A DNA stretch of 12,534 bases from a virus. Taxonomy: Duplodnaviria > Heunggongvirae > Uroviricota > Caudoviricetes. A program made the translations under genes and the position numbers. Location: IMG/VR virus record IMGVR_UViG_2600254997_000018; one strand, 5' to 3'. Shown here piece after piece: positions 1-12,534 of this stretch; the first letter of the stretch is position 1; the number at the start of each line of letters is the position of its first letter. The notes beneath the pieces were generated by a model. That model was not told the DNA's origin, ran no database searches, and worked only from the letters and a program-made list of their open reading frames with translations.

Positions 1-104
1 CACAGCTCGTTGACAGCCTCTTCACGACTGATTCCAAGGCGAGCTGCCACCACATGTGAAGAGGCTTTTTTCAGTGCTTTCAGTGCGTCAGATACGGTTT
101 CCAT
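1..104 (-). CDS. Hypothetical protein, N-terminal part only (gene runs off the window start)
   Basis: ATG at 104..102 preceded by GGAGGA Shine-Dalgarno (complement of 112-117), 21 nt downstream of the DnaC-like stop. Open frame continues to position 1, N-terminus reads METVSDALKALKKASSHVVAARLGISREEAV. Not in the ORF track because truncated. Confidence 0.3.
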   Translation of the reverse strand, partial: METVSDALKALKKASSHVVAARLGISREEAVNEL

Positions 105-125
105 TAAAATTTCCTCCGGACAAAA

Positions 126-872
126 TTACTTCACAACCCTCATATTGCTGACATTTGGACGCCAGCTATCCCAGTTAAACGTCACCCATCGACCACCGTT
201 CATGGTCATGCGGTCCATAATCCTCTCACCAAGAAGTGTACTCATTGCGGCATGATTCAGGTTTGTTAACATCCCGACACTGCACAGTGATGCTGTCCGG
301 CGATCAATTATCTGGTGTAATACCACCTGCTCGTTTTTCGTCTCACGCTGAACGCCTATTTCATCCAGGACCAGCAAATCAACCCCGCAAAGCTCCTGTA
401 AAAATTTTTCCCCGGACTGGCCGTTGTCGTAGCTGTCATGCAACACACTCATGACGTCAGACACGGTGACGATAATCACGCTGCTCCCCTTCGCCATCAG
501 CCGGTTGCCCATCGCCGCTGCAAGGTGATTTTTCCCGGTGCCGGTTTTACCGCTGAACACAAAATTCGTGCACCCGGTCATCAGTTCGTCAGCGATGGAT
601 TTTGCCTGGCTCAGCGCGTGTTTTTGCCCGTCGTTCTGCACCTGATAATTCGCAAACGAGCATTTGCTGTGCAGAGGCTGGATGCCCGAACGATTCAGGA
701 TTTTTTCCACCCGCAACTGGCGATTCTGGCGGTTAATCTCCTCGCTGCGTTTTCGTCCTTCAGCAAGCTGCCATTCCCGCCACTCCTCCACCGTCCGGTA
801 CGGTGGAACCGCCCCCTGTGGTGCAAGTCTGCGAATACGTTCAAGAACCCCGGCTGCCGCAATGTTTTTCAT
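126..872 (-). CDS. DnaC-like replicative helicase loader (prophage-encoded, IstB-like AAA+ ATPase)
   Basis: 248-aa ORF with Walker A GKTGTGKNHLAAA and Walker B LLVLDEIG. Recalled close similarity along the whole length to E. coli DnaC and to Rac YdaV. GGGGG Shine-Dalgarno upstream of the ATG at 872. Confidence 0.9.
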   Translation of the reverse strand: MKNIAAAGVLERIRRLAPQGAVPPYRTVEEWREWQLAEGRKRSEEINRQNRQLRVEKILNRSGIQPLHSKCSFANYQVQNDGQKHALSQAKSIADELMTGCTNFVFSGKTGTGKNHLAAAMGNRLMAKGSSVIIVTVSDVMSVLHDSYDNGQSGEKFLQELCGVDLLVLDEIGVQRETKNEQVVLHQIIDRRTASLCSVGMLTNLNHAAMSTLLGERIMDRMTMNGGRWVTFNWDSWRPNVSNMRVVK

Positions 873-1355
873 GCCACGTCACCCCCTGAATCCAGGCGGT
901 ATTTCAGTGTCCGGTTCAGAAATGTGATTTACGCAACGCTGCGCGGGCGAACGCCCCAGGCGGATAACCAGTTCATCCCATTTTTCCCGGAGTTTTGCCG
1001 GACTCATGATGTGTTTTTACCCAGAACGAATCCCGCTGGACACGCCCAAACATTTCACAAATCTGCCGGTGACTACGTCCATCCAGCATACGCATCATGC
1101 GCACATCATTCGCCCAGGTCGTCCAGTTAGGTTCTCTGGGGCGTGACACCTCACCATCATCACTGGCGGCCTGTTCATACAACGCCACAACCCGTCCCCA
1201 AATCCACTGCGCACAGGTTCGACATCCTCACGGGTACCCCACTGTCGCTTCGGTACATTCCAGGTATGCGCATCCGGGTGTTTCTCCAGAAATCGCTCAA
1301 CTGGTGATGATTGTTTTTCGTCCGGCAGTGAAACGTCCGGACAAGAAGATCTTTT

Positions 1356-1507
1356 ATCTTGACGGATCAGGTTTTGATACTGACGGATCGGGGTCAATCA
1401 TCGCCCCCCTAATCGGCAGTTTTTTATCAACCGTTGATCCATCAAAATTTGACGGGTCAACCGTTGAGGGGTCAATATTTGACGGGTCAACTGTTAACGG
1501 GTCATTT
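1356..1507. repeat. Iteron-like direct and inverted repeats; putative prophage replication origin inside the initiator gene
   Basis: Core GACGG(G/A)TCA recurs at least 6 times. Two near-identical 30-bp tandem units at 1448-1477 and 1478-1507, two ~21-bp units at 1359-1400, and an AT-rich stretch follows at 1505-1545. Layout resembles lambda ori within gene O. Confidence 0.6.
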
Positions 1508-1768
1508 TTTGTCCGGGCTAATTTTTCTTTTCGGTTTATATGCCTCACGCGCCGCAGTTGCAGCTGCTTCGAGTTTTTCCACATTAAGCCGATAGATATT
1601 GCTTACGTTACGCCCACCGACCTTACGCTCTTCCTTCGTCAGCCAGCCCTCTTTCGCCAGTTCTGCAATAGCAGATTTAACGGTGGATTCACTTCTTGCA
1701 CCGATCTGACGCCGGATAGTTTCAATGGCAGGCCATGACACGCCCTCGTCATTGCTGTAGTCTAGCAA
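1502..1768 (-). CDS. Helix-turn-helix N-terminal segment of a phage replication initiator (O/YdaU-like), apparently truncated
   Basis: 88-aa ORF with HTH-like stretch AIETIRRQIGARSESTVKSAIAELAKEGWL. It starts on TTG with weak Shine-Dalgarno and contains no Met, and it ends at a stop just past a T6 run (1505-1510) inside the iteron array, so it looks like one piece of a longer broken gene. Confidence 0.5.
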   Translation of the reverse strand: MLDYSNDEGVSWPAIETIRRQIGARSESTVKSAIAELAKEGWLTKEERKVGGRNVSNIYRLNVEKLEAAATAAREAYKPKRKISPDKK

Positions 1769-1875
1769 GACGGGCCATAACCGCCACCCTGGATAAGATC
1801 ATGCCGGTGAAGGCGCACCCTTCCCAGACAAGACCATGAAGCTTGCTGCTCATAAAACCCCCGAACACCGTGCTT

Positions 1876-2301
1876 TTAGTGCATCACCACAGCATTCCCT
1901 GCCGGGCCGCCGCGATTCATCTGGTCATACAAAACAACCGCTGACGCAACAAAATCATCGACATCCTTCACCAGCCGATCCCTCCGTTCGACAATCTCAC
2001 GGTAATATTCAGAACTGTGGCTGCGCATACGGGCCACCAGCAGAGGCGGCATTGCCTTTTCGATCGCCGGTAACAGAGCCTGCATTTTTTCAACAGCATC
2101 AGGGGTGTCTTTATCCAGCCAACGGAAAATTTTCTGGGTATTACGAGCCAGGGCTTCCGGATGGCTGTCGTCGTACAGTTCCGGGAACGTCATCCCCAGT
2201 TCGAAATAAGTCCGGGCTATTTCAGCTGCAGGAACTTTCTCACCATCAGGATATGCCCAGGCATTCATCGCCATGCGGATGTGCTCATGTTTGATTTTCA
2301 T
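1876..2301 (-). CDS. ydaT: YdaT-like prophage protein (occupies the CII-like position)
   Basis: 141-aa ORF starting MKIKHEHI, immediately downstream of and overlapping the ydaS-like gene by 17 nt, as in Rac ydaS-ydaT. Assignment is from recalled similarity and synteny. Confidence 0.75.
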   Translation of the reverse strand: MKIKHEHIRMAMNAWAYPDGEKVPAAEIARTYFELGMTFPELYDDSHPEALARNTQKIFRWLDKDTPDAVEKMQALLPAIEKAMPPLLVARMRSHSSEYYREIVERRDRLVKDVDDFVASAVVLYDQMNRGGPAGNAVVMH

Positions 2302-2608
2302 GAATCATTTGCCTCTTGATGCTTCGGGTATGATCGTTTTCGTCATTTGGTTGCTTCATCGACATATTCTGCGAATAACATGACGAGCGTCGTAAGTATG
2401 TCCAATCAACATCAGGACGAAGTTCTTCACACAGGACACCACCTTTTGTTGCTCGTTCAATCGCAGGACATCTCTCAGCAGGCAACTGACGTACACCTTT
2501 GATCCATTGATTTACGCTTGGAGGAGATACACCTAAAAGCCTAGCCATTGCTGATTGCCCACCGACAACAGCACAAGCTCGTTTGAATGAATAGTTATCT
2601 TTTTTCAT
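2285..2608 (-). CDS. ydaS: YdaS-like Cro-type HTH DNA-binding protein
   Basis: Sequence MKKDNYSFKRACAVVGGQSAMARLLGVSPPSVNQWIKGVRQLPAERCPAIERA closely matches recalled Rac YdaS. Start placed at ATG 2608 (GGAG Shine-Dalgarno 8 nt upstream) rather than the track's GTG at 2629. Divergent from the repressor gene. Confidence 0.8.
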   Translation of the reverse strand: MKKDNYSFKRACAVVGGQSAMARLLGVSPPSVNQWIKGVRQLPAERCPAIERATKGGVLCEELRPDVDWTYLRRSSCYSQNMSMKQPNDENDHTRSIKRQMIHENQT

Positions 2609-2629
2609 CGAATGAACTCCAAAAAACAC

Positions 2630-2732
2630 ACAATAATATTAGGCTTAGCCTAATGTGATTGTCAATAGGCTATGCCTAACGATTCGAGAGTAGGGATTGC
2701 CTAACGCGATGCGCATAGGAGACTATTAAGCA
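2630..2732. promoter_or_regulatory. Divergent promoter/operator region between the ydaS-like and repressor genes
   Basis: Three operator-like sites about 26 bp apart: perfect 17-bp palindrome ATTAGGCTTAGCCTAAT (2638-2654), TAGGC-TAT-GCCTA (2666-2678), TAGGG-ATT-GCCTA (2691-2703). AGGAG Shine-Dalgarno at 2716-2720 before the repressor ATG at 2733. Confidence 0.5.
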
Positions 2733-3209
2733 ATGCTTAGTGGTAAAGACTTAGGCCGAGCGATAGAGCAGGCCATTAACAAAAAAATTGCATCAGGAGC
2801 CGTCAAATCAAAGGCGGAAATCGCACGTCATTTCAAAGTCCAACCACCATCAATCCATGACTGGATTAAGAAAGGTTCGATAAGTAAAGACAAACTTCCA
2901 GAACTATGGCGTTTCTTTTCTGATGTGGTTGGTCCAGAGCATTGGGGGCTTAACGAATACCCCATACCAACCCCATCCACTTCAGATACAAAAAGTGAAC
3001 TTTTAGACATAAACAGCCTTTATCAAGCCGCCTCTGATGAAAAAAGAGCAATTGTGGCTTTCCTCTTATCTGGAAATGCTACGGAGCCTAGTTGGGTTGA
3101 TCATGACGTTCGCGCCTACATTGCCGCAATGGAAATGAAGGTAGCTAACTATCTGAAAAATCAAGAATCAAAACGGAAAAGCCAGAACATCACCAAGACA
3201 GGAACTTAA
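2733..3209 (+). CDS. racR: RacR-like prophage repressor (HTH, no recognisable S24 peptidase/LexA-type domain)
   Basis: 158-aa ORF (same length as Rac RacR) with HTH-like stretch SKAEIARHFKVQPPSIHDWIKKGSIS. Divergent from ydaS/ydaT-like genes as in Rac. Identity from synteny, length and recalled similarity, not a search. Confidence 0.65.
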   Translation: MLSGKDLGRAIEQAINKKIASGAVKSKAEIARHFKVQPPSIHDWIKKGSISKDKLPELWRFFSDVVGPEHWGLNEYPIPTPSTSDTKSELLDINSLYQAASDEKRAIVAFLLSGNATEPSWVDHDVRAYIAAMEMKVANYLKNQESKRKSQNITKTGT

Positions 3210-3283
3210 ACTTATATGGTACGACGGGAAATTCCTAGTTCCCGTTAGTTAACTCCTACTACCTCTCCCACAAACCATCACCT

Positions 3284-3346
3284 ATTAGGTCGCACCCAAA
3301 TCATTAGGCGCAGCCTATTGACAGGCAATTAGGCATTTCCTATAGT
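3284..3346 (+). promoter_or_regulatory. Sigma70-like promoter (TTGACA-17-TATAGT) with flanking and embedded TTAGGC operator-like sites; putative promoter of the DUF1391-dicF-dicB operon
   Basis: -35 TTGACA 3318-3323, 17-bp spacer, -10 TATAGT 3341-3346. Palindrome TAGGC-GCA-GCCTA at 3305-3317 abuts the -35, ATTAGGC at 3328-3334 sits in the spacer, and ATTAGG also occurs at 3284-3289. Confidence 0.5.
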
Positions 3347-3527
3347 TTTCCCATACCAACCCATCCCGTCCCACACAATACAGGGCAATACCTAGAGTTA
3401 CCCGGCAGTGGTCAGGGATTAAGTAGCCAGCCCGAGGCGTATGAACATGACGGCGGGAACACTTTGTATAACAGCGCAGCAGGTTTTTAGTTCCGCTACC
3501 CCAGCGTTAAGGGGAAATGAGGTCAGC

Positions 3528-3680
3528 ATGGATACTATCGAGCTTGGCAACAACGAATCTCTGGTATGTGGCGTGTTTCCCAATCAGGACGGCACGTTTA
3601 CCGCGATGACGTATACCAAAAGTAAAACGTTTAAAACCGAAGCTGCCGCGCATCGCTGGTTAGCCAGAAACGCTAACTGA
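3528..3680 (+). CDS. ydfA: DUF1391 small protein (YdfA/YdaF-like)
   Basis: 50-aa product MDTIELGNNESLVCGVFPNQDGTFTAMTYTKSKTFKTE closely matches recalled Qin YdfA. GAGG Shine-Dalgarno 7-8 nt upstream of ATG 3528. The track's 79-aa ORF from 3441 is an in-frame upstream extension. Confidence 0.7.
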   Translation: MDTIELGNNESLVCGVFPNQDGTFTAMTYTKSKTFKTEAAAHRWLARNAN

Positions 3681-3942
3681 TTAGCGCCAGTAAAAACAGG
3701 TTTCCACAGGTTAATTTACCCTGAAAAGTCAGGGCATAACACGAAAGCGCACGGCGAGATCCCTTTGCATATAAGTCTTGTCGTTAAATTTCTTCGACCG
3801 TGCGCTTCTGGTTGTGGCAATCCGCGAAATGGCGCGGCGGTAAGTATGGCGGGGTTATTCCTTCCCCCATTGAGGACACCGGGTTGTCAGGTTGACCATA
3901 CGCTTAAGTGACAACTTCGCTACAACGCCCTCTGCTATCAAT

Positions 3943-3995
3943 TTTCTGGTGACGTTTGGCGGTATCAGTTTTACTCCGTGGCTGCTCTGCCGCCC
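3943..3995 (+). ncRNA. dicF: DicF small RNA homolog (Hfq-dependent ftsZ-targeting sRNA of Qin-type prophages)
   Basis: TTTCTGGTGACGTTTGGCGGTATCAGTTTTACTCCGTGGCTGCTCTGCCGCCC differs at one position (A to G) from the 53-nt K-12 DicF as I recall it. A T5 run follows at 3996-4000. It lies upstream of the dicB-like gene, as in Qin. Confidence 0.85.
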
Positions 3996-4169
3996 TTTTT
4001 AAAGTGAATTTTGTGATGCGGTGAATGCGGCTATGCGCACGCGGAACAGTTAAAACCAAAAACAGTGTTATGGGTGGATTCTCTGTATCCGGCGTTAATT
4101 GTTAACTGGTTAACGTCACCTGGAGGCACCAGGCACTGCATCACAAAATTCATTGTTGAGGACGCGATA

Positions 4170-4358
4170 ATGGAAACGTTATTACCAAACGTTAATACGT
4201 CTGAAGGTTGTTTTGATATTGGTGTTCTGCTCAGTAACCGGGAGTTTACTGAAGATGCCATTAAGATGAGAAAATATGAACCTTATCTTCTCAATGATAA
4301 TTCCATACTTTCCAGAATTGCCCTTCTTGAACTTGGTATTATCGGAGAACAGCAGTGA
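4170..4358 (+). CDS. dicB: DicB-like cell-division inhibitor (MinC-activating small protein)
   Basis: 62-aa product METLLPNVNTSEGCFDIGV... matches K-12 DicB in length and N-terminus as recalled. GAGGA Shine-Dalgarno upstream of ATG 4170. The track ORF 4065-4358 is an upstream in-frame extension. Confidence 0.8.
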   Translation: METLLPNVNTSEGCFDIGVLLSNREFTEDAIKMRKYEPYLLNDNSILSRIALLELGIIGEQQ

Positions 4359-4543
4359 CTTCAGCGTTTGCACTGGTGATGACCGTTTTTCTTATAACGG
4401 GTGAGCCACAAAATGTGATTACCGGAATTTATGCCAGTAAAGAATCCAGCCTCCAGGCAAGAGACGAGCAAAAAATTTCTGGTGAATGCCTACCGGTAAA
4501 AAAAGTATCGCTGTACCTGAATAACGAAACACCGGCTGGATAA
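4355..4543 (+). CDS. Small membrane protein, YdfD-like (Qin lysis-protein position)
   Basis: 62-aa ORF with an N-terminal hydrophobic helix (SAFALVMTVFLITG). GTG start overlaps the dicB-like stop (GTGA) with GGAG Shine-Dalgarno 7 nt upstream; alternative ATG at 4379. Assignment by synteny (gene after dicB in Qin is ydfD). Confidence 0.55.
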   Translation: MTSAFALVMTVFLITGEPQNVITGIYASKESSLQARDEQKISGECLPVKKVSLYLNNETPAG

Positions 4544-4638
4544 CCCGCCAGCTATATTAACGCCATACCAACGGATTAAAAATGCCAGCAATGGCAGGGA
4601 TTCGTTCACCCTGAAATCTGTAATGAGGTTAAAACACA

Positions 4639-7110
4639 ATGAGTAAAATCTTTATTTGCGCTGCTATTCCTGACGAACAGGCCATAAAAGAAGATAGCGC
4701 TGTTGCGGTGGCCACTGCCATTGAAGCCGGTGATGAGCGTCGCGCACGCGCAAAATTTCACTGGCAATTTCTGGAGCAATTCCCGGCAGCTCAGGACTGC
4801 GCTTATAAATTTATTGTCTGCGAGGATAAACCCGGCATACCCCGCCCTGCCCTCGATTCCTGGGATACCGAATATATGCAGGAAAACCGCTGGGATGAGG
4901 AGTCAGCTTCCTTTGTACCGGTCGAACCAGAATCCGATCCGATGAACGTCAATTTTGACAAGCTGTCCCCTGAAGTACAGAACGCAGTCCTAGTTAAATT
5001 CGACACATGCGAAAACATCACCGTTGATATGGTGATTAGCGCACAGGAATTACTACAGGAAGACATGGCAACATTCGGCGGACATATCGTTGAAGCGTTG
5101 ATGAAAATGCCAGAAGTTAACGCCATGTATCCTGAACTTAAACTGCATGCCATCGGGTGGGTTAAGCATAAATGTGAGCCTGGCGCTAAATGGCCTGAAA
5201 TTCAGGCAGAGATGCGCATCTGGAAAAAACGTCGCGAAGGTGAACGCAAGGAAACCGGAAAATACACGTCTGTTGTTGATCTCACCCGCGCCAGAGTCAA
5301 CCAACAGAACACTGAAAACGCTGCTGAAAAAACCGGGGCTGTCACTGTTGCCATTCGCCGCGAATACAAACAGACATGGAAAACACTCGACAATGAACTG
5401 GCCTGCGCCCTCTGGCCCGGTGATGTGGATGCAGGAAACATTGACGGTACCATCCATCGCTGGGCGACAAATGAGGTTATCGACAAGGATCGCGAAGACT
5501 GGAAGCGTATCTCAGCATCAATGCGCAAACAGCCCGAAGCACTTGGCTATGACCGTCAGACTATTTTTGGCCTTGTTCGCGAACGTCCGATCGATATTCA
5601 CAAAGATCCCGTTGCACTGAACAAATATATCAGTGAATACCTGACGACAAAGGGCGTGTTTGAACATGAAGAAACAGACCAGAGCTCTACTGATGCTCTC
5701 CAGCCGTCAGCAGCACAAACTGCTCCAGTGGAGACGGCAGAATCCGATACTCAAAAAAATGAAATCCTGGTGGAAGCTGAACCATCTGTAGAGCGTGAAG
5801 GACCATTTTATTTCGTCTTTACCGATAAGGGCGGGGAAAAATACGGCAGGGCAAACAAACTTTCTGGTCTGGACAAGGCGCTGGCTGCCGGCGGTACCGA
5901 AATCTCAAAAGAAGAATATTTTGCCCGAAAAAATGGCACATACACGGGCTTACCGCAAAATGTGGATACCGCTGAAGATTCCGAACAATCAGAGCCGGTA
6001 AAAGTTACCGCTGACGAAGTAAACAAAATTATGCAGGCAGCCAATATCAGCCAGCCTGACGCCGATAAATTGCTTGCTGCATCACGTGGTGAATTTGTTG
6101 AAGGGATTAGCGACCCGAATGATCCGAAATGGGTGAAAGGGATCCAGAGTCGCGACGCTGAGGACCAGAATCAGCCCAACGTGAAACAAAATGAGCCAGA
6201 AGCGGAACAAAACAGCCCGGATACGCAACAAAACGGGCCAGAAGAACAACAACCAGAACCAGCAGTGCAACAGGAACTGGAAAAAGTTTGCACCGCATGC
6301 GGTCAGACCGGTGGCGGCAACTGTCCTGACTGTGGTGCGGTGATGGGGAACGCAACCTACCTGGAAACATTCGATGAAGAGAATCAGGCTGAAGCTCAGA
6401 AAAATGATCCGGAGGAAATGGAAGGCACTGAACATCTGCACAAGGAGAACACTGGCAGCGATCAGTATCACGCCAGCGATAATAAAACTGGCGAAACAGC
6501 AAATCCCTTAATTAAAGTGAACGGTCATCATGAAATCTCATCCACCAGCAGGTTGTGGCACCATCTGATGATTGACCTTGAAACAATGGGAAAAAATCCT
6601 GATGCGCCAATAAACGCTATAGCCGGTAAGTTTTTTGATCCGGCAACCGGAGAGATGGGGCCAGAATTCAGCAAAACTATCGATCTGGAAACCGCAGGTG
6701 GGGTCATCGATCGGGACACCATTAAGTGGTGGCTGAAACAGTCACGCGAAGCACAATCCTCCATTCTGACCGATGAAATCACGTTGGATGATGCACTGCT
6801 GCAATTCCGGGAATTTATCGACGAAAACTCCGGTGAATTTTTTGTTCAGGTCTGGGGTAACGGTGCAACTTTCGACAACGTGATTTTACGCCGTTCATAT
6901 GAACGGCAGGGGATCCCCTGCCCGTGGCGTTACACCAATGATCGCGATGTAAGAACGATGGTTGCTCTGGGACTGGTGATGGATTTCGACGCAAGAACGA
7001 CTATTCCATTCGAAGGTGAACGCCATAACGCCCTGCACGATGCGCGTTACCAGGCAAAATACGTTTCAGCCATCTGGCAAAAACTGCTCCCGAGTCAGGC
7101 TGATTTTTAA
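4639..7110 (+). CDS. Prophage exonuclease, 823 aa: RecE/exodeoxyribonuclease-VIII-like N-terminal region, CxxC-x7-CxxC zinc ribbon, C-terminal DnaQ-like (DEDDh) 3'-5' exonuclease domain
   Basis: Intact 2.47-kb ORF with GAGG Shine-Dalgarno. Motif DKLLAASRGEFVEGISDPNDPKWVKGIQ recalls RecE. C-terminal ~190 aa carry DEDDh motifs (MIDLETMG, WGNGATFDNVIL, HNALHDARYQ). Zinc ribbon encoded at 6289-6333, acidic/Gln-rich linker at ~6160-6280. Confidence 0.85.
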   Translation: MSKIFICAAIPDEQAIKEDSAVAVATAIEAGDERRARAKFHWQFLEQFPAAQDCAYKFIVCEDKPGIPRPALDSWDTEYMQENRWDEESASFVPVEPESDPMNVNFDKLSPEVQNAVLVKFDTCENITVDMVISAQELLQEDMATFGGHIVEALMKMPEVNAMYPELKLHAIGWVKHKCEPGAKWPEIQAEMRIWKKRREGERKETGKYTSVVDLTRARVNQQNTENAAEKTGAVTVAIRREYKQTWKTLDNELACALWPGDVDAGNIDGTIHRWATNEVIDKDREDWKRISASMRKQPEALGYDRQTIFGLVRERPIDIHKDPVALNKYISEYLTTKGVFEHEETDQSSTDALQPSAAQTAPVETAESDTQKNEILVEAEPSVEREGPFYFVFTDKGGEKYGRANKLSGLDKALAAGGTEISKEEYFARKNGTYTGLPQNVDTAEDSEQSEPVKVTADEVNKIMQAANISQPDADKLLAASRGEFVEGISDPNDPKWVKGIQSRDAEDQNQPNVKQNEPEAEQNSPDTQQNGPEEQQPEPAVQQELEKVCTACGQTGGGNCPDCGAVMGNATYLETFDEENQAEAQKNDPEEMEGTEHLHKENTGSDQYHASDNKTGETANPLIKVNGHHEISSTSRLWHHLMIDLETMGKNPDAPINAIAGKFFDPATGEMGPEFSKTIDLETAGGVIDRDTIKWWLKQSREAQSSILTDEITLDDALLQFREFIDENSGEFFVQVWGNGATFDNVILRRSYERQGIPCPWRYTNDRDVRTMVALGLVMDFDARTTIPFEGERHNALHDARYQAKYVSAIWQKLLPSQADF

Positions 7111-7168
7111 TGTTCAACCCGGATCGCCGCTAACGGCATATAGTTAGCGGCGGTTGTGAGATATAGCT

Positions 7169-7372
7169 ATGAGCAGCATATTTTTAACCGAAAATGAATT
7201 GCAAACGTTAACGGGCTGCAAATATGCAAGCCACCAGCGCAACTGGTTAATAAAAAATGGGCTTCCGTTCTATACCAATCGTAGTGGAAAACCGATCGTC
7301 AGTCGGGAACTGTTTACCTGTATAAAAACTTTACCACCACGTGAGGCTGAACCTGATTTCGGTGCGATCTAA
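7169..7372 (+). CDS. Excisionase-like protein (Xis, DUF4224-type)
   Basis: 67-aa ORF directly upstream of the integrase. Its stop TAA overlaps the integrase ATG (TAATG at 7370-7374), the classic xis-int arrangement. Confidence 0.6.
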   Translation: MSSIFLTENELQTLTGCKYASHQRNWLIKNGLPFYTNRSGKPIVSRELFTCIKTLPPREAEPDFGAI

Positions 7373-8397
7373 TGGGAAGACGAAGGAAAAATCCCGAACA
7401 CGAAAAATTACCGCCAAAGGTATACCCCAATAAATATAGTTATGTATGGAAACCGACATCCAGAGAATCTGTAACCTTAACTGCAATCGAGGATGGTTTA
7501 GCCGCATTATGGAAAAAGTATGAAGAAACGGTTAACCATCGCGATCGCGCAATGACATTTGGGCGTTTGTGGGAAAAATTTCTCGCCAGCGCCTATTACA
7601 GCGAGCTTAGTCCTAGAACTCAAAAAGATTATCTGCAACATCAAAAAAAGCTGCTGGCCGTATTCGGTAAGGTGCTGGCCGATTCTGTAAAACCAGAGCA
7701 CATCAGACGATACATGGACAAAAGAGGCGAGCAGAGTAAAACGCAGGCAAACCATGAAAAAAGCAGTATGTCGCGCGTTTATAGTTGGGGGTATGAGCGA
7801 GGATACGTGAAGGCTAACCCATGTGCAGGTGTAAGTAAATTCAAGGCCAAAAACCGCGAACGATATGTAACCGACAAAGAATACCAGGCAGTATTAAGCG
7901 TTGCACCTCTTCCTGTTTTTATCGCAATGGAAATTGCCTATCTGTGTGCAGCGAGGGTTTCCGATGTGTTATCGCTGAAATGGGAGCAGATTGGAAACGA
8001 CGGGATCTTTATCCAGCAAGGGAAAACAGGGAAAAAACAGATAAAAGCATGGAGTCCACGATTACAGGCGGCGATCGAAAAAGCAAAACAGTTACCAACA
8101 TCCGCCTATGTAATCAGCAATCAATACGGCAACCGATATATGTACAAAGGCTTTAACGAAATGTGGGTAGAAGCAAGAAATCACGCAGGCAAAATTTCAG
8201 GTATTTTAACCGACTTCACCTTTCATGATCTGAAGGCGAAAGGAATTTCAGACTATGAAGGAAGCAGCCGGGATAAGCAACTTTTCTCTGGTCACAAAAC
8301 CGAAGGGCAAGTGCTAATCTATGACAGGAAGGTTAAAGTTTCACCAACACTTGATGTCCCGTTACCTGAAAATATTCCAAGAAAATATTCCAAGTAA
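7372..8397 (+). CDS. Phage integrase, tyrosine site-specific recombinase
   Basis: 341-aa ORF whose C-terminal region carries residues consistent with the tyrosine-recombinase catalytic set (R in ARVSD, H/K in HDLKAKG, Y in LIYDRK). It ends 52 bp from the 3' end of tRNA-Ser. Confidence 0.9.
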   Translation: MGRRRKNPEHEKLPPKVYPNKYSYVWKPTSRESVTLTAIEDGLAALWKKYEETVNHRDRAMTFGRLWEKFLASAYYSELSPRTQKDYLQHQKKLLAVFGKVLADSVKPEHIRRYMDKRGEQSKTQANHEKSSMSRVYSWGYERGYVKANPCAGVSKFKAKNRERYVTDKEYQAVLSVAPLPVFIAMEIAYLCAARVSDVLSLKWEQIGNDGIFIQQGKTGKKQIKAWSPRLQAAIEKAKQLPTSAYVISNQYGNRYMYKGFNEMWVEARNHAGKISGILTDFTFHDLKAKGISDYEGSSRDKQLFSGHKTEGQVLIYDRKVKVSPTLDVPLPENIPRKYSK

Positions 8398-8449
8398 TTC
8401 CAAGTGTGATTTTTGTCACTGACTTAATGATGTGTAAGTGATTGAATTT

Positions 8450-8539
8450 TGGCGGAGAGAGGGGGATTTGAACCCCCGGTGGAGTTGCCCCCACTCCGGT
8501 TTTCGAGACCGGTCCGTTCAGCCGCTCCGGCATCTCTCC
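8450..8539 (-). tRNA. serU: tRNA-Ser (anticodon CGA)
   Basis: Reverse complement reads GGAGAGATGCCGGAGCGGCTGAACGGACCGGTCTCGAAAACCGGAG...TCTCTCCGCCA: 7-bp acceptor stem, anticodon loop CU-CGA-AA, long variable arm, encoded CCA. Matches E. coli serU as recalled. Confidence 0.9.
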
Positions 8540-8632
8540 GTTCAGATGGTTGCCATGATGCCAGGAAATTTGGCATTTTAACAGTCCCTGTCCGTGCAAT
8601 TTTGTTCAAGTGACGAGTTTGCGAGCAAAACG

Positions 8633-9430
8633 ATGATTAAGTGGCCCTGGAAAGTACAAGAATCAGCACATCAAACTGCCCTTCCCTGGCAGGAAGCACT
8701 ATCGATCCCCCTTTTAACGTGTCTGACAGAACAGGAACAAAGCAAATTAGTCGCTCTTGCCGAACGTTTTTTACAACAAAAACGGCTTGTTCCTTTACAG
8801 GGCTTTGAGCTGAATTCATTAAGAAGCTGCCGGATAGCACTTCTATTTTGCCTGCCCGTTCTGGAGTTAGGACTGGAATGGCTGGATGGTTTTCATGAAG
8901 TCTTAATTTATCCTGCGCCATTTGTGGTCGATGATGAATGGGAAGACGATGTCGGTCTGGTGCATAACCAACGTATTGTTCAGTCAGGTCAGAGCTGGCA
9001 GCAAGGGCCTATCGTTTTGAACTGGTTGGATATACAAGATTCTTTTGATGCTTCTGGTTTTAACCTGATTATTCATGAAGTCGCTCATAAGCTGGACACC
9101 CGTAACGGCGATCGCGCCAGCGGAGTTCCCTTTATTTCGTTGCGTGAGGTTGCTGGCTGGGAACACGATCTTCATGCTGCAATGAACAACATTCAGGAAG
9201 AAATCGAATTAGTTGGTGAGAATGCGGCGAGCATTGATGCTTATGCTGCCAGTGATCCTGCTGAATGTTTTGCCGTACTTTCTGAATATTTCTTTAGCGC
9301 CCCAGAACTTTTTGCTCCTCGTTTCCCTTCATTGTGGCAACGTTTCTGTCAATTTTATCAACAAGATCCTTTGCAGAGACTGCATCACGCTAATGATACA
9401 GACTCGTTTTCGGCGACGAATGTTCATTAA
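8633..9430 (+). CDS. mtfA: MtfA, Mlc titration factor A (zinc-dependent peptidase, HEXXH motif)
   Basis: 265-aa product from ATG 8633 ([20 protein letters not shown]...) matches E. coli MtfA as recalled, including the HEVAHKLD motif. The track ORF 8594-9430 is an upstream in-frame extension. Sits between serU and asnT as in K-12. Confidence 0.9.
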
Positions 9431-9483
9431 TTAACAACTTTGCAGATTAATTAACCAATTGAAATGGCTTATGAAATTTAGTG

Positions 9484-9512
9484 TTGACAGACAAGGTACC
9501 GCTAAGTAATAT
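9484..9512 (+). promoter_or_regulatory. Sigma70 promoter for tRNA-Asn (TTGACA-17-TAATAT with GC-rich discriminator)
   Basis: TTGACA at 9484-9489, 17-bp spacer, TAATAT at 9507-9512, followed by GCGCCCC, typical of stringently controlled tRNA promoters. tRNA starts at 9531. Confidence 0.5.
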
Positions 9513-9530
9513 GCGCCCCGTTCTCACGAT

Positions 9531-9606
9531 TCCTCTGTAGTTCAGTCGGTAGAACGGCGGACTGTTAATCCGTATGTCACTGGTTCGAGTCCAGTCAGAG
9601 GAGCCA
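9531..9606 (+). tRNA. asnT: tRNA-Asn (anticodon GUU)
   Basis: TCCTCTGTAGTTCAGTCGGTAGAACGGCGGACTGTTAATCCGTATGTCACTGGTTCGAGTCCAGTCAGAGGAGCCA, 76 nt, matches E. coli tRNA-Asn as recalled. Copy assignment (asnT) is by position next to mtfA. Confidence 0.95.
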
Positions 9607-9694
9607 AATTCTAAAGATTCGCTTTTTTAGCGCAATGTCACTGCTCTTAGTTGAGCATTGCTTTTTAACGGATAGCGGGTTTTTGACATCTTAA

Positions 9695-11196: not shown

Positions 11197-11209
11197 CTGA
11201 GAGATCCCC

Positions 11210-12419
11210 TCATAATTTCCCCAAAGCGTAACCATGTGTGAATAAATTTTGAGCTAGTAGGGTTGCAGCCACGAGTAAGTCTTCCCTTGTTATTGTGTAG
11301 CCAGAATGCCGCAAAACTTCCATGCCTAAGCGAACTGTTGAGAGTACGTTTCGATTTCTGACTGTGTTAGCCTGGAAGTGCTTAGTCCCAACCTTGTTTC
11401 TGAGCATGAACGCCCGCAAGCCAACATGTTAGTTGAAGCATCAGGGCGATTAGCAGCATGATATCAAAACGCTACTGAGCTGCCCGTTCGGCTATGGCGT
11501 AGGCCTAGCCCGTAGGCAGGACTTTTCAAGTCTCGGAAGGTTTCTTCAATCTGCATTCGCTTCGAATAGATATTAACAAGTTGTTTGGGTGTTCGAATTT
11601 CAACAGGTAAGTTAGTTGCTAGAACCATGGCTCCTTTGCCGACGCTGAGTAGATTTTAGGTGACGGGTGGTGACAATGAGTCCGTGTCGAGCGCTGATTT
11701 TTTCGGCCTTTAGAGCGAGATTTATACAATAGAATTTGGCATGAGATTGGATTGCTTTTAGTCAGCCTCTTATAGCCTAAAGTCTTTGAGTGACTAGATG
11801 ACATATCATGTAAGTTGCTGATAGGTTTCCAGTTTTCCGCTCCTAGGTCTGCATATTGTACTTTTCCTCTTACTCGACTTAACCAGTACCAACCCAGCTT
11901 CTCAACGGATTTATACCATGGCACTTTAAAGCCAGCATCACTGACAATGAGCGGTGTGGTGTTACTCGGTAGAATGCTCGCAAGGTCGGCTAGAAATTGG
12001 TCATGAGCTTTCTTTGAACATTGCTCTGAAAGCGGGAACGCTTTCTCATAAAGAGTAACAGAACGACCGTGTAGTGCGACTGAAGCTCGCAATACCATAA
12101 GTCGTTTTTGCTCACGAATATCAGACCAGTCAACAAGTACAATGGGCATCGTATTGCCCGAACAGATAAAGCTAGCATGCCAACGGTATACAGCGAGTCG
12201 CTCTTTGTGGAGGTGACGATTACCTAACAATCGGTCGATTCGTTTGATGTTATGTTTTGTTCTCGCTTTGGTTGGCAGGTTACGGCCAAGTTCGGTAAGA
12301 GTGAGAGTTTTACAGTCAAGTAATGCGTGGCAAGCCAACGTTAAGCTGTTGAGTCGTTTTAAGTGTAATTCGGGGCAGAATTGGTAAAGAGAGTCGTGTA
12401 AAATATCGAGTTCGCACAT
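11210..12419 (-). pseudogene. IS10 transposase, frame-disrupted (N-terminal 266 aa intact, middle and C-terminal parts in other frames)
   Basis: ORF 11619-12419 matches IS10 Tnp from MCELDILHDSLYQF... but stops at ...AKEPWF*. The expected continuation VLATNLPVEIRTPKQ... is in another frame, and the C-terminal ...HFQANTVRNRNVLSTV...GYALGKL is in ORF 11210-11419. At least three indels within ~200 bp. Confidence 0.8.
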
Positions 12420-12480
12420 CTTGTTGTCTGATTATTGATTTTTCGCGAAACCATTTGATCATATGACAAGATGTGTATCT
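12412..12480 (+). ncRNA. IS10 antisense RNA-OUT (predicted from position in IS10)
   Basis: Established IS10 layout puts pOUT about 115 bp from the outside end, transcribing outward. The window shows the expected stem: CGCACATCTTGTTGTC (12413-12428) pairs with GACAAGATGTG (12465-12475). GATC at 12467-12470. Confidence 0.5.
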
Positions 12481-12534
12481 ACCTTAACTTAATGATTTTT
12501 ATCAAAATCATTAGGGGATTCATCAGGCGTAGCG

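Follow-up and report, generated by a model that had tools for sequence, protein, structure and literature searches.

A probable lambda-type replication origin within the O-like initiator gene of a Rac-like Escherichia coli prophage

The DNA analyzed here (IMG/VR record IMGVR_UViG_2600254997_000018; 12,534 nucleotides, hereafter the window) is the early region of a Rac-like lambdoid Escherichia coli prophage integrated at tRNA-Ser, next to mtfA; positions 1-9607 align to the genome of E. coli 14EC017 with 99.8% identity. Within a gene predicted to encode an O-like replication initiator, we identified an array of short dyad-symmetric sites, and we consider it highly probable that positions 1342-1540 (core, 1359-1505) are the lambda-type replication origin of this prophage, located in the part of the initiator gene that encodes the linker between its two main domains. 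That lambdoid phages have their origin within the initiator gene is textbook knowledge. The evidence presented below comprises the anatomy and statistics of the array, its conservation and position, selection at the DNA level, linkage to the N-terminal domain (N-domain), and protein homologies; from these, we infer initiator binding, unwinding, helicase recruitment, and origin firing.

The array occupies positions 1356-1507, where we found seven copies of a dyad-symmetric site with the core TGA-N4-TCA and the best form TTGACSSGTCAA. Five of the sites are arranged at exact 15-bp phasing (1434-1505), and two more, hereafter the distal sites, lie at 1359-1391. With ≤2 mismatches to TTGACSSGTCAA, there are eight matches in the window against 1.76 expected window-wide; six of them fall within 1359-1505 (147 bp), the only two elsewhere correspond to the chance level, and none of 200 shuffles contained ≥8 matches. 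Tandem Repeats Finder (TRF) returned scores of 96 (period 15) and 98 (period 30) over 1427-1511, which are the top scores of the window; the next score elsewhere is 65, and no comparable repeats were found elsewhere in the 12.5 kb. A preliminary description of this DNA, made from its letters and open reading frames, would have been refuted by repeats no denser at 1356-1507 than in the flanking coding sequence, and both the TRF scores and the shuffles show that they are denser.

That description had also counted at least six copies of GACGG(G/A)TCA in both orientations. The count holds when one mismatch is allowed (seven copies) but not for exact copies, of which there are three: GACGGRTCA occurs exactly at 1361, 1451, and 1481, and with one mismatch at 1382, 1466, and 1496, as well as at 1435 on the minus strand. 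At ≤1 mismatch, 7 of the 11 matches in the window (4.0 expected) fall in the array region. Orientation is meaningless for these sites, as each is a palindrome. The two tandem 30-bp units that had been described are present as two alternating unit types; however, they are not near-identical (83-85% identity), and the basic period is 15 bp.

The array at 1427-1516 encodes xDxSx pentapeptide repeats, in frame and with five codons per unit. The frame fragment present in the window and the intact homolog both encode the peptide NDPLTVDPSNIDPSTVDPSNFDGSTVD, which agrees with the DPSTVDPS-type peptide repeats noted earlier, and the span of the sites corresponds to nucleotides (nt) 346-495 of the intact initiator gene. 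The two distal sites are 21 bp apart and read GATCCGTCAG in gene orientation. In an alignment of five lineages, they are kept codon for codon (GAT CCG TCA GTA), always using GAT-CC and thereby creating GATC.

A chance cluster or an assembly artefact would find support in the odd insertions of the surrounding gene, and in nothing else. Given that no shuffle reached the observed count and that hundreds of independent genomes and phages carry the same array, we regard this explanation as excluded.

We compared the array with those of phages that carry the same N-domain (53-71% identity): Shigella phage SfII; E. coli phages PhiR49_1, Kati, 733R5, and Flotzy; Klebsiella phages Kp4871 and Kp4866-6; Yersinia phage YeP1; and phiP27. 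Each has 4-7 units with a period of exactly 15 bp at about nt 310-480 of the gene, and the 15-bp array is followed by a short A-run, one more site, and a GATCCRTCA pair 24 bp apart. Periodicity in intact homologs had been named as a check in the preliminary description; the same 15-bp period is found at the same gene position down to ~50% protein identity. In 10 initiator genes, TGAN4TCA occurs 56 times, 51 of them in the linker, whereas a uniform-base model predicts 2.4 occurrences. In phiP27, the site takes the symmetric variant form TGAA-CC-TTCA. Among close relatives and E. coli alleles, copy number shifts by whole 15-bp units; exactly one unit, that of site S7 (Table 1), is missing from strain 155 and from the 954-nt allele class.

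The genes compared are mosaic, and the repeats vary with one end of the protein. In YeP1 and Flotzy, the same N-domain and repeats are joined to an unrelated C-terminal domain (C-domain). Phage HannyBb keeps the C-domain (its extreme C-terminus is related by translation), has a different N-domain, and contains five 23-bp repeats of another sequence; more distant N-domains (Morganella phage IME1369_02 and Salmonella phage SI5) are likewise accompanied by other repeats. Within E. coli, the boundary in alleles and diversity falls directly after the last site. These patterns indicate that the repeats are inherited with the N-domain and never with the C-domain. In HannyBb (locus L007, 1690-1870), the five 23-bp repeats (CATCRGKTCAAAATG…) are accompanied by a 24-bp-spaced pair (TACAGAGAATAMAA) and sit where the 15-bp array and the distal pair would be, such that the architecture is the same and the sequence is different.

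An alternative explanation is that only the xDxSx linker peptide matters: it would have been born of replication slippage, and the periodicity of the DNA would be a by-product lacking any DNA function. The units are indeed in frame and exactly five codons long, D and S are conserved, the linker tolerates many residue changes and unit indels, and tandem units share codons by descent. Because of this shared descent, codon identity within a gene is no proof of constraint on the DNA, and the argument rests on comparison between lineages. We aligned five lineages in which synonymous sites are near saturation (pairwise codon identity at conserved residues, 0.33-0.54). At residues invariant in all five, the same codon was fixed at 11 of 20 positions in the repeat linker versus 2 of 45 in the N-domain (Fisher p=1e-5).

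A position matrix built from 34 in-frame units of seven lineages pointed in the same direction. Information is concentrated at T3, G4, A5, T10, C11, A12, and A13-15, and two of the positions in T3-A12 are third codon positions. In the first codon, 1.57 bits fall on the third base, versus 0.66 and 0.50 on the first two; the middle codon (P/T/A/G) is nearly free; and Ser is encoded by TCA in 31 of the 34 units, despite the existence of six Ser codons. Across 38 distinct alleles from 80 IMG/VR prophage loci, diversity in the N-domain is 10-40x higher at third positions than at first and second positions, as expected under purifying selection on the protein, whereas in the array third-position diversity is equal or lower. 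Information in third codon positions, combined with the dyad TGA-N4-TCA, is the reverse of a protein-level signature, and it indicates that selection acts on the repeat DNA rather than on the peptide. Since the motif is also palindromic, and since phages with another N-domain have other repeats in this position, we judge a purely peptide-level origin of the array to be improbable.

We also considered RNA or single-strand structure in the initiator mRNA, acting on translation pausing or stability, in place of a duplex-DNA site. The minus-strand RNA of 1340-1545 has a predicted folding energy of -57.9 kcal/mol versus -42.6 kcal/mol for shuffles (z -3.8), and the corresponding single-stranded DNA has a z of -2.45. 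However, such z-scores follow automatically from any palindromic array, and there is no Rfam match in the initiator or array region. What is conserved are phased half-sites rather than long-range pairs, a change in unit number from 4 to 7 would re-register a nested fold, and each 4-2-4 palindrome is too short for a hairpin of its own. We therefore see very little room for an RNA-level explanation.

The preferred reading, an origin, requires a protein to act on the sites, and the host gene is a plausible source. The intact homolog is a 322-aa protein (WP_000095676.1) with a full-length match to PHROG 391, "replication initiation O-like" (3e-106). The embedding of the repeats in a replication-initiator gene, as first proposed from the reading frames, is thus upheld by this family match, by an N-terminal HTH_36 domain, and by a lambda-O-like C-domain. 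Using BLASTP, we aligned residues 203-302 with lambda O residues 188-277 (41% identity over 100 residues, E=2e-24), and TBLASTN with the C-domain matched the O genes of lambda, 434, phi80, and 933W-type Shiga toxin (Stx) phages; BLASTP detected no N-terminal similarity to lambda O. Based on these alignments, the initiator is a mosaic O-like protein and not a full member of the lambda O family. The HTH_36 domain is the presumed iteron-binding domain. No Rep_3/RepA-type Pfam domain was found in the initiator. An AlphaFold2 model of the window-encoded N-domain, computed from the single sequence with no alignment, had a pLDDT of 65 and was unusable.

Over its last ~20 residues (…VNHISEPDTEIPPGFRG), the initiator matches E. 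coli DnaT at the extreme C-terminus of the latter. In a search of PDB sequences, this tail produced the only match (2ru8_A, 6aep_A, and 9zbt_D; E about 0.01-0.03), and no structure was found for the N-domain or C-domain. The tail may be a portable docking peptide for the DnaB/DnaC loading pathway; PMC13377028 states that the way in which DnaT recruits DnaB/DnaC is unknown. The same tail also ends several otherwise unrelated initiators, namely those of K-12 Rac (YdaU), Sakai Sp10 (ECs_1944), Flotzy, and PhiR49, the latter two with different C-domains. Lambda O, whose partner is P, does not have such a tail.

Helix stability was scored with a nearest-neighbour scan of 40-mers, with lambda as the positive control. 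In lambda, the AT-rich region that immediately follows the iterons came out as the 40-mer of lowest stability in its locus (z 3.4). In 733R5 and Flotzy, the corresponding minimum of the whole locus is found over the distal pair, just gene-downstream of the array (z 3.0). In the window, the homologous position, likewise gene-downstream of the array, holds the least stable 40-mer of the initiator gene (1342-1381; Table 1), but it belongs only to the top 4% of the window for instability. The preliminary description had placed an AT-rich stretch on the opposite side of the array. Such a stretch does exist at 1501-1540, but its AT-richness is moderate, and the slightly weaker duplex is the one at 1342-1381, which is the most likely position for lambda-like unwinding.

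The region beside the array also contains the densest cluster of GATC (Dam) sites in the window: 100-bp windows with four GATC make up 0.1% of all such windows, and all of them are at 1348-1439. Such a cluster recalls Dam-dependent origins such as oriC and P1 oriR. A DNA adenine methylase gene is located 1-3 genes downstream of the initiator gene in 733R5, PhiR49, SfII, YeP1, and Morganella phage IME1369_02. The cluster and the phage methylases hint at control of the origin by Dam/SeqA. We also considered GATCTTTTATCTT at 1348-1360 (+) as an oriC-type 13-mer, as it matches 10 of the 11 specified positions of the 13-mer consensus (GATCTnTTnTTTT); it is a single copy, consists partly of a window-specific inserted T, and is unconserved in phage relatives, and the match is probably due to chance.

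Together, these features suggest the following model. Derepression would allow transcription from the cro-side promoter (about 2636-2665) of the genes for YdaS/Cro, YdaT, the initiator, and the loader, and this transcription would pass through the origin. Dimers of the HTH_36 domain would bind the TGA-N4-TCA dyads (optimum, TTGACSSGTCAA), and the five 15-bp-spaced sites together with the two GATC-containing sites would assemble an O-some-like nucleoprotein complex. This complex would destabilize the adjacent, easily melted, GATC-rich DNA (1342-1391), most likely at 1342-1381, and the lambda-O-like C-domain and the DnaT-like tail would recruit DnaB through the DnaC-like loader.

The same sites could instead be bound by the initiator, or by some other regulator of the phage, and serve control (autoregulation or attenuation of initiator expression, titration of the initiator, incompatibility, or exclusion), with the true origin located elsewhere in the phage. 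Repeats of iteron plasmids serve both initiation and copy control, ectopic lambda origins are reported to inhibit cognate phages (PMC3349717, PMC4488673), and the weak AT-rich flank leaves doubt about unwinding in the window. However, the position of the array is that of ori-lambda, and the least stable DNA lies directly after the array in phage relatives. The other two matches to TTGACSSGTCAA in the window are at the chance level, and a 16-kb early-region element (locus L098, described below) has only two further TGAN4TCA sites. The racR/ydaS immunity operators are unrelated to the sites, and control and initiation are not mutually exclusive. On balance, a role restricted to control seems unlikely, though less so than the other alternatives considered.

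The single hint of autonomous replication driven by this initiator comes from the 16-kb element, NZ_CP148542.1, a 15,977-bp circle deposited as a plasmid, which consists solely of a cI-cro-initiator-DnaC-like-Q-lysis segment and has no typed plasmid replicon; its initiator gene contains a -1/+1 homopolymer frameshift pair. It may be a lambda-dv-like natural replicon or an assembly product, and we did not use it as evidence for an origin.

Several points weigh against the interpretation of the array as an origin. The initiator gene is frameshifted in the window, and for the HTH_36/O-C initiator family both binding and origin activity are predicted from sequence comparison. Compared with that of lambda (z 3.4), the AT-rich element of the window is weak (z 1.6-1.75, top 4%). 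The 15-bp centre-to-centre spacing corresponds to about 1.4 helical turns, closer than the 20-24 bp between lambda iterons, and the geometry of the complex must therefore differ. Symmetry at the inner positions of the sites is mildly enriched (24 of 56 versus 18.3 expected), a weak excess that does not serve as a main argument. In some prophage alleles, core positions are substituted (D to N, A, or G), such that only 3-4 exact sites are left, and, as discussed above, the sharing of codons by descent among tandem units limits within-gene identity as proof.

Table 1. Positions of the array, its sites, and associated features in the window
Feature	Position	Strand	Basis or remark
15-bp unit array, 30-bp super-period of two alternating unit types	1427..1516		Repeat family D1, five in-register copies; TRF
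Site S3, TTGATCCATCAA, dyad TGAT..ATCA	1434..1445		Motif scan
Site S4, TTGACGGGTCAA, perfect 5-2-5 palindrome	1449..1460		Motif scan
Site S5, TTGAGGGGTCAA	1464..1475		Motif scan
Site S6, TTGACGGGTCAA, perfect palindrome	1479..1490		Motif scan
Site S7, TTAACGGGTCAT, degenerate end unit	1494..1505		Motif scan; missing in a subset of relatives
Distal pair with GATC: TGACGGATCA (1360-1369) and TGACGGATCG (1381-1390)	1359..1391		Repeat family D2; codon alignment
Candidate unwinding element, least stable 40-mer of the gene	1342..1381		z=1.75; gene-downstream of the array
Second moderately AT-rich, strand-asymmetric stretch, encodes YKPKRKISPAKN	1501..1540		35% GC, z 1.6; lineage-specific
Four GATC (Dam) sites, densest cluster in the window	1348..1439		Four in 92 bp
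O-like initiator gene	879..1853	-	Alignment to E. coli 14EC017 and strain 155; annotation of intact copy; PHROG 391
N-terminal HTH_36 coding region	1640..1781	-	Pfam, residues 25-71, 27.7 bits versus cut-off of 25; weak DnaD_N match
Lambda-O-like C-terminal domain	942..1244	-	Intact residues 203-302; BLASTP versus lambda O, TBLASTN
Last 21 residues, AQRCVNHISEPDTEIPPGFRG, resembling the E. coli DnaT C-terminal tail	882..944	-	PDB sequence search
DnaC/IstB-like AAA+ ATPase gene	126..872	-	Pfam IstB_IS21 3e-19, Bac_DnaA 1.7e-7
YdaT-like gene	1876-2301	-	Pfam YdaT_toxin; annotation
YdaS/Cro-like gene	2285-2629	-	Pfam YdaS_toxin, P22_Cro; annotation
Sigma-70-like promoter, TTGACA-18-TAATAT	2636..2665	-	Promoter scan, 10/12 matches; racR/ydaS intergenic region

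In the annotation, the initiator gene encodes a "helix-turn-helix domain-containing protein" and is the third gene from the racR/cro divergent promoter region (minus strand). The YdaT-like and YdaS/Cro-like genes (1876..2629, minus strand) lie upstream of it in the same transcription unit, and the ATPase gene directly downstream presumably encodes the helicase loader. Based on a consensus match, transcription from the sigma-70-like promoter would traverse the origin, as it does from lambda pR. Promoter and terminator scans of 800-2800 gave counts not above those of shuffles, and the single terminator-like match in that interval (1498-1515) is part of the repeats and the T-run. The immunity operators in the racR/ydaS intergenic region have sequences unrelated to the array sites.

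In the window, the initiator gene is split into four open reading frame (ORF) fragments. Compared with 14EC017 over 9.6 kb, all indels are inserted bases in the initiator gene: five events totaling 6 bases, at positions 1013, 1218-1219, 1359, 1512, and 1764 of the plus strand. The initiator gene has no substitutions relative to 14EC017, and the rest of the prophage part has two. Four of the five insertion events are not homopolymer extensions, and the one at 1359 extends a single T. Exact scans with a 28-mer across the 1359 insertion found no copy of this variant in complete E. coli genomes, species-representative genomes, or IMG/VR contigs, and the best complete E. coli genome aligns with 99.4% identity over the initiator gene without the insertions. 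The pattern looks like sequence error or editing, because selection explains no more than one frameshift. With these five insertions, the initiator is non-functional here, so the origin could fire only with an initiator of the same specificity in trans; at best, the site in the window is a dormant origin in need of such an initiator. The initiator family as a whole is maintained, given that intact initiator genes are present in all 80 IMG/VR relatives and that 1817 of 5426 complete E. coli genomes contain a relative, some of them in 2-3 copies.

Other parts of the window contain additional mobile-element and RNA features. The integrase gene beside tRNA-Ser (7372-8422, plus strand; also 8450-8539, minus strand) is frameshifted according to the 14EC017 annotation, to which the window is identical there, and the prophage is probably also excision-defective. 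Rfam identified two RNAs, the antisense small RNA DicF (75 bits; 3944-3995, plus strand), which precedes the prophage's dicB-like gene for a cell-division inhibitor, and an IS10-type RNA-OUT at 12412-12481 (plus strand, 98.8 bits). The latter accompanies an ORF for an IS4-family (ISVsa5-like) transposase (11619-12419, minus strand) in an element (about 11200-12534) that is inserted in a chromosomal yeeJ-like region (Ig-like/invasin domains) beyond tRNA-Asn.

We searched the literature for the motif strings and for iterons in HTH_36/DnaC-type modules and found no description, although an earlier in silico mention is possible. In the open-access papers covered by the search, such HTH_36 proteins are listed only as "HTH proteins," without an origin, and the SfIV genome paper goes no further than a "replication module." For a cassette that about one in three complete E. 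coli genomes carries, and that is also found in the serotype-converting Shigella phages SfII and SfIV, in phiP27, and in Stx2_KH16-043, our analysis provides a concrete candidate origin together with a putative recognition sequence (TGA-N4-TCA, optimum TTGACSSGTCAA, 15-bp phasing). Knowledge of the origin helps to predict which prophages still replicate or are trans-activated by neighbours, helps to explain the mosaicism of replication modules, with a recombination joint right after the last site, and permits the design of mini-replicons or origin-based inhibitors.

A more speculative idea, to which we assign a low probability, is that the array is a dual-coding device that may outlive its initiator in defective prophages, where the retained high-affinity array would act as a decoy titrating the initiators of same-specificity phages that enter the cell or reside in it. 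Under dual coding, one 15-bp unit would be one binding site plus five linker residues, and gain or loss of a unit would tune origin strength and protein geometry together; under the decoy idea, origin-based exclusion or cross-talk would be expected among the many E. coli prophages with this module.

Among known systems, plasmid iteron origins and P1 oriR, in which Rep-binding repeats adjoin a GATC-rich unwinding region, resemble the array in having phased repeats, presumably initiator-binding here, next to a melt-prone segment. However, plasmid iterons are usually direct, asymmetric repeats of 17-22 bp that lie outside the rep gene and are bound by Rep monomers, whereas the sites described here are palindromic, 15 bp apart, and inside the gene. 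We rejected a plasmid Rep_3/RepA-type replicon on these grounds and because of the missing Rep-type Pfam domain.

The K-12 Rac prophage shares the gene order racR, ydaS, ydaT, initiator, and DnaC-like ydaV with the window, and an active origin, oriJ, has been reported for it (PMC3945230). Its initiator YdaU has the same last ~19 residues (…IPPGFRG), and ydaU also contains internal repeats (AGATGTTCAA, 33-bp spacing), but the repeat sequence is unrelated, and YdaU is a DUF1376 protein with no further similarity to the window initiator. The two proteins align only over those last 19 residues, and we rejected oriJ/YdaU as an equivalent. As YdaU is not homologous, the window has a different replication cassette in a Rac-like backbone, and the oriJ data are not transferable. 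Within K-12 ydaU (locus L096, 2472-2563), we found four AGATGTTCAA-type repeats, mostly 33 bp apart, plus a perfect inverted repeat of 11 nt. Lying within the gene of an unrelated DUF1376 initiator, these repeats are candidate iterons of oriJ.

Prophage Sp10 of O157 Sakai is replication- and transfer-proficient and has a DnaC-type loader (PMC2669165). It was rejected as experimental support, as its initiator ECs_1944 belongs to another family and matches only at the tail. Eru8/Eru11-type Stx phage units match the window in gene content, with a YdaT-like gene and an HTH_36 protein beside cI/cro; the Eru classification is based on gene content only, and the terms "iteron" and "origin of replication" are absent from its text (PMC8951638).

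The closest parallel is ori-lambda, and the likeness to an origin within gene O that the preliminary description had drawn is supported. In both systems, multiple dyad-symmetric repeats are embedded in the gene of the initiator itself, equally far from the start codon (nt 349-433 in lambda; nt 346-495 here), between an N-terminal DNA-binding part and a C-terminal part that is homologous between the two proteins. The easily melted segment of lambda is gene-downstream of the repeats, as is the weaker candidate segment here, and the gene is downstream of the cro-side promoter. As in lambda and the Stx phages 933W and P27, repeat number varies among relatives and alters protein length; lambda has 4 iterons, and these Stx phages have 6 (PMC7466680). 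The systems differ in that the N-domain here is HTH_36 rather than lambda-O-like, the repeat sequence is unrelated (TGA-N4-TCA versus ATCCCTCAAAACGAGGGAT in lambda), and the sites measure 10-12 bp and are spaced at 15 bp, compared with 18-19 bp and 20-24 bp in lambda. In addition, the partner here is a DnaC/IstB-like ATPase instead of lambda P, the initiator ends in a DnaT-like tail that lambda O does not have, and the AT-rich element is much weaker in the window lineage. An origin on the lambda plan with a repeat sequence of its own is nothing out of the ordinary, and variation of this sort on the lambda theme is to be expected.

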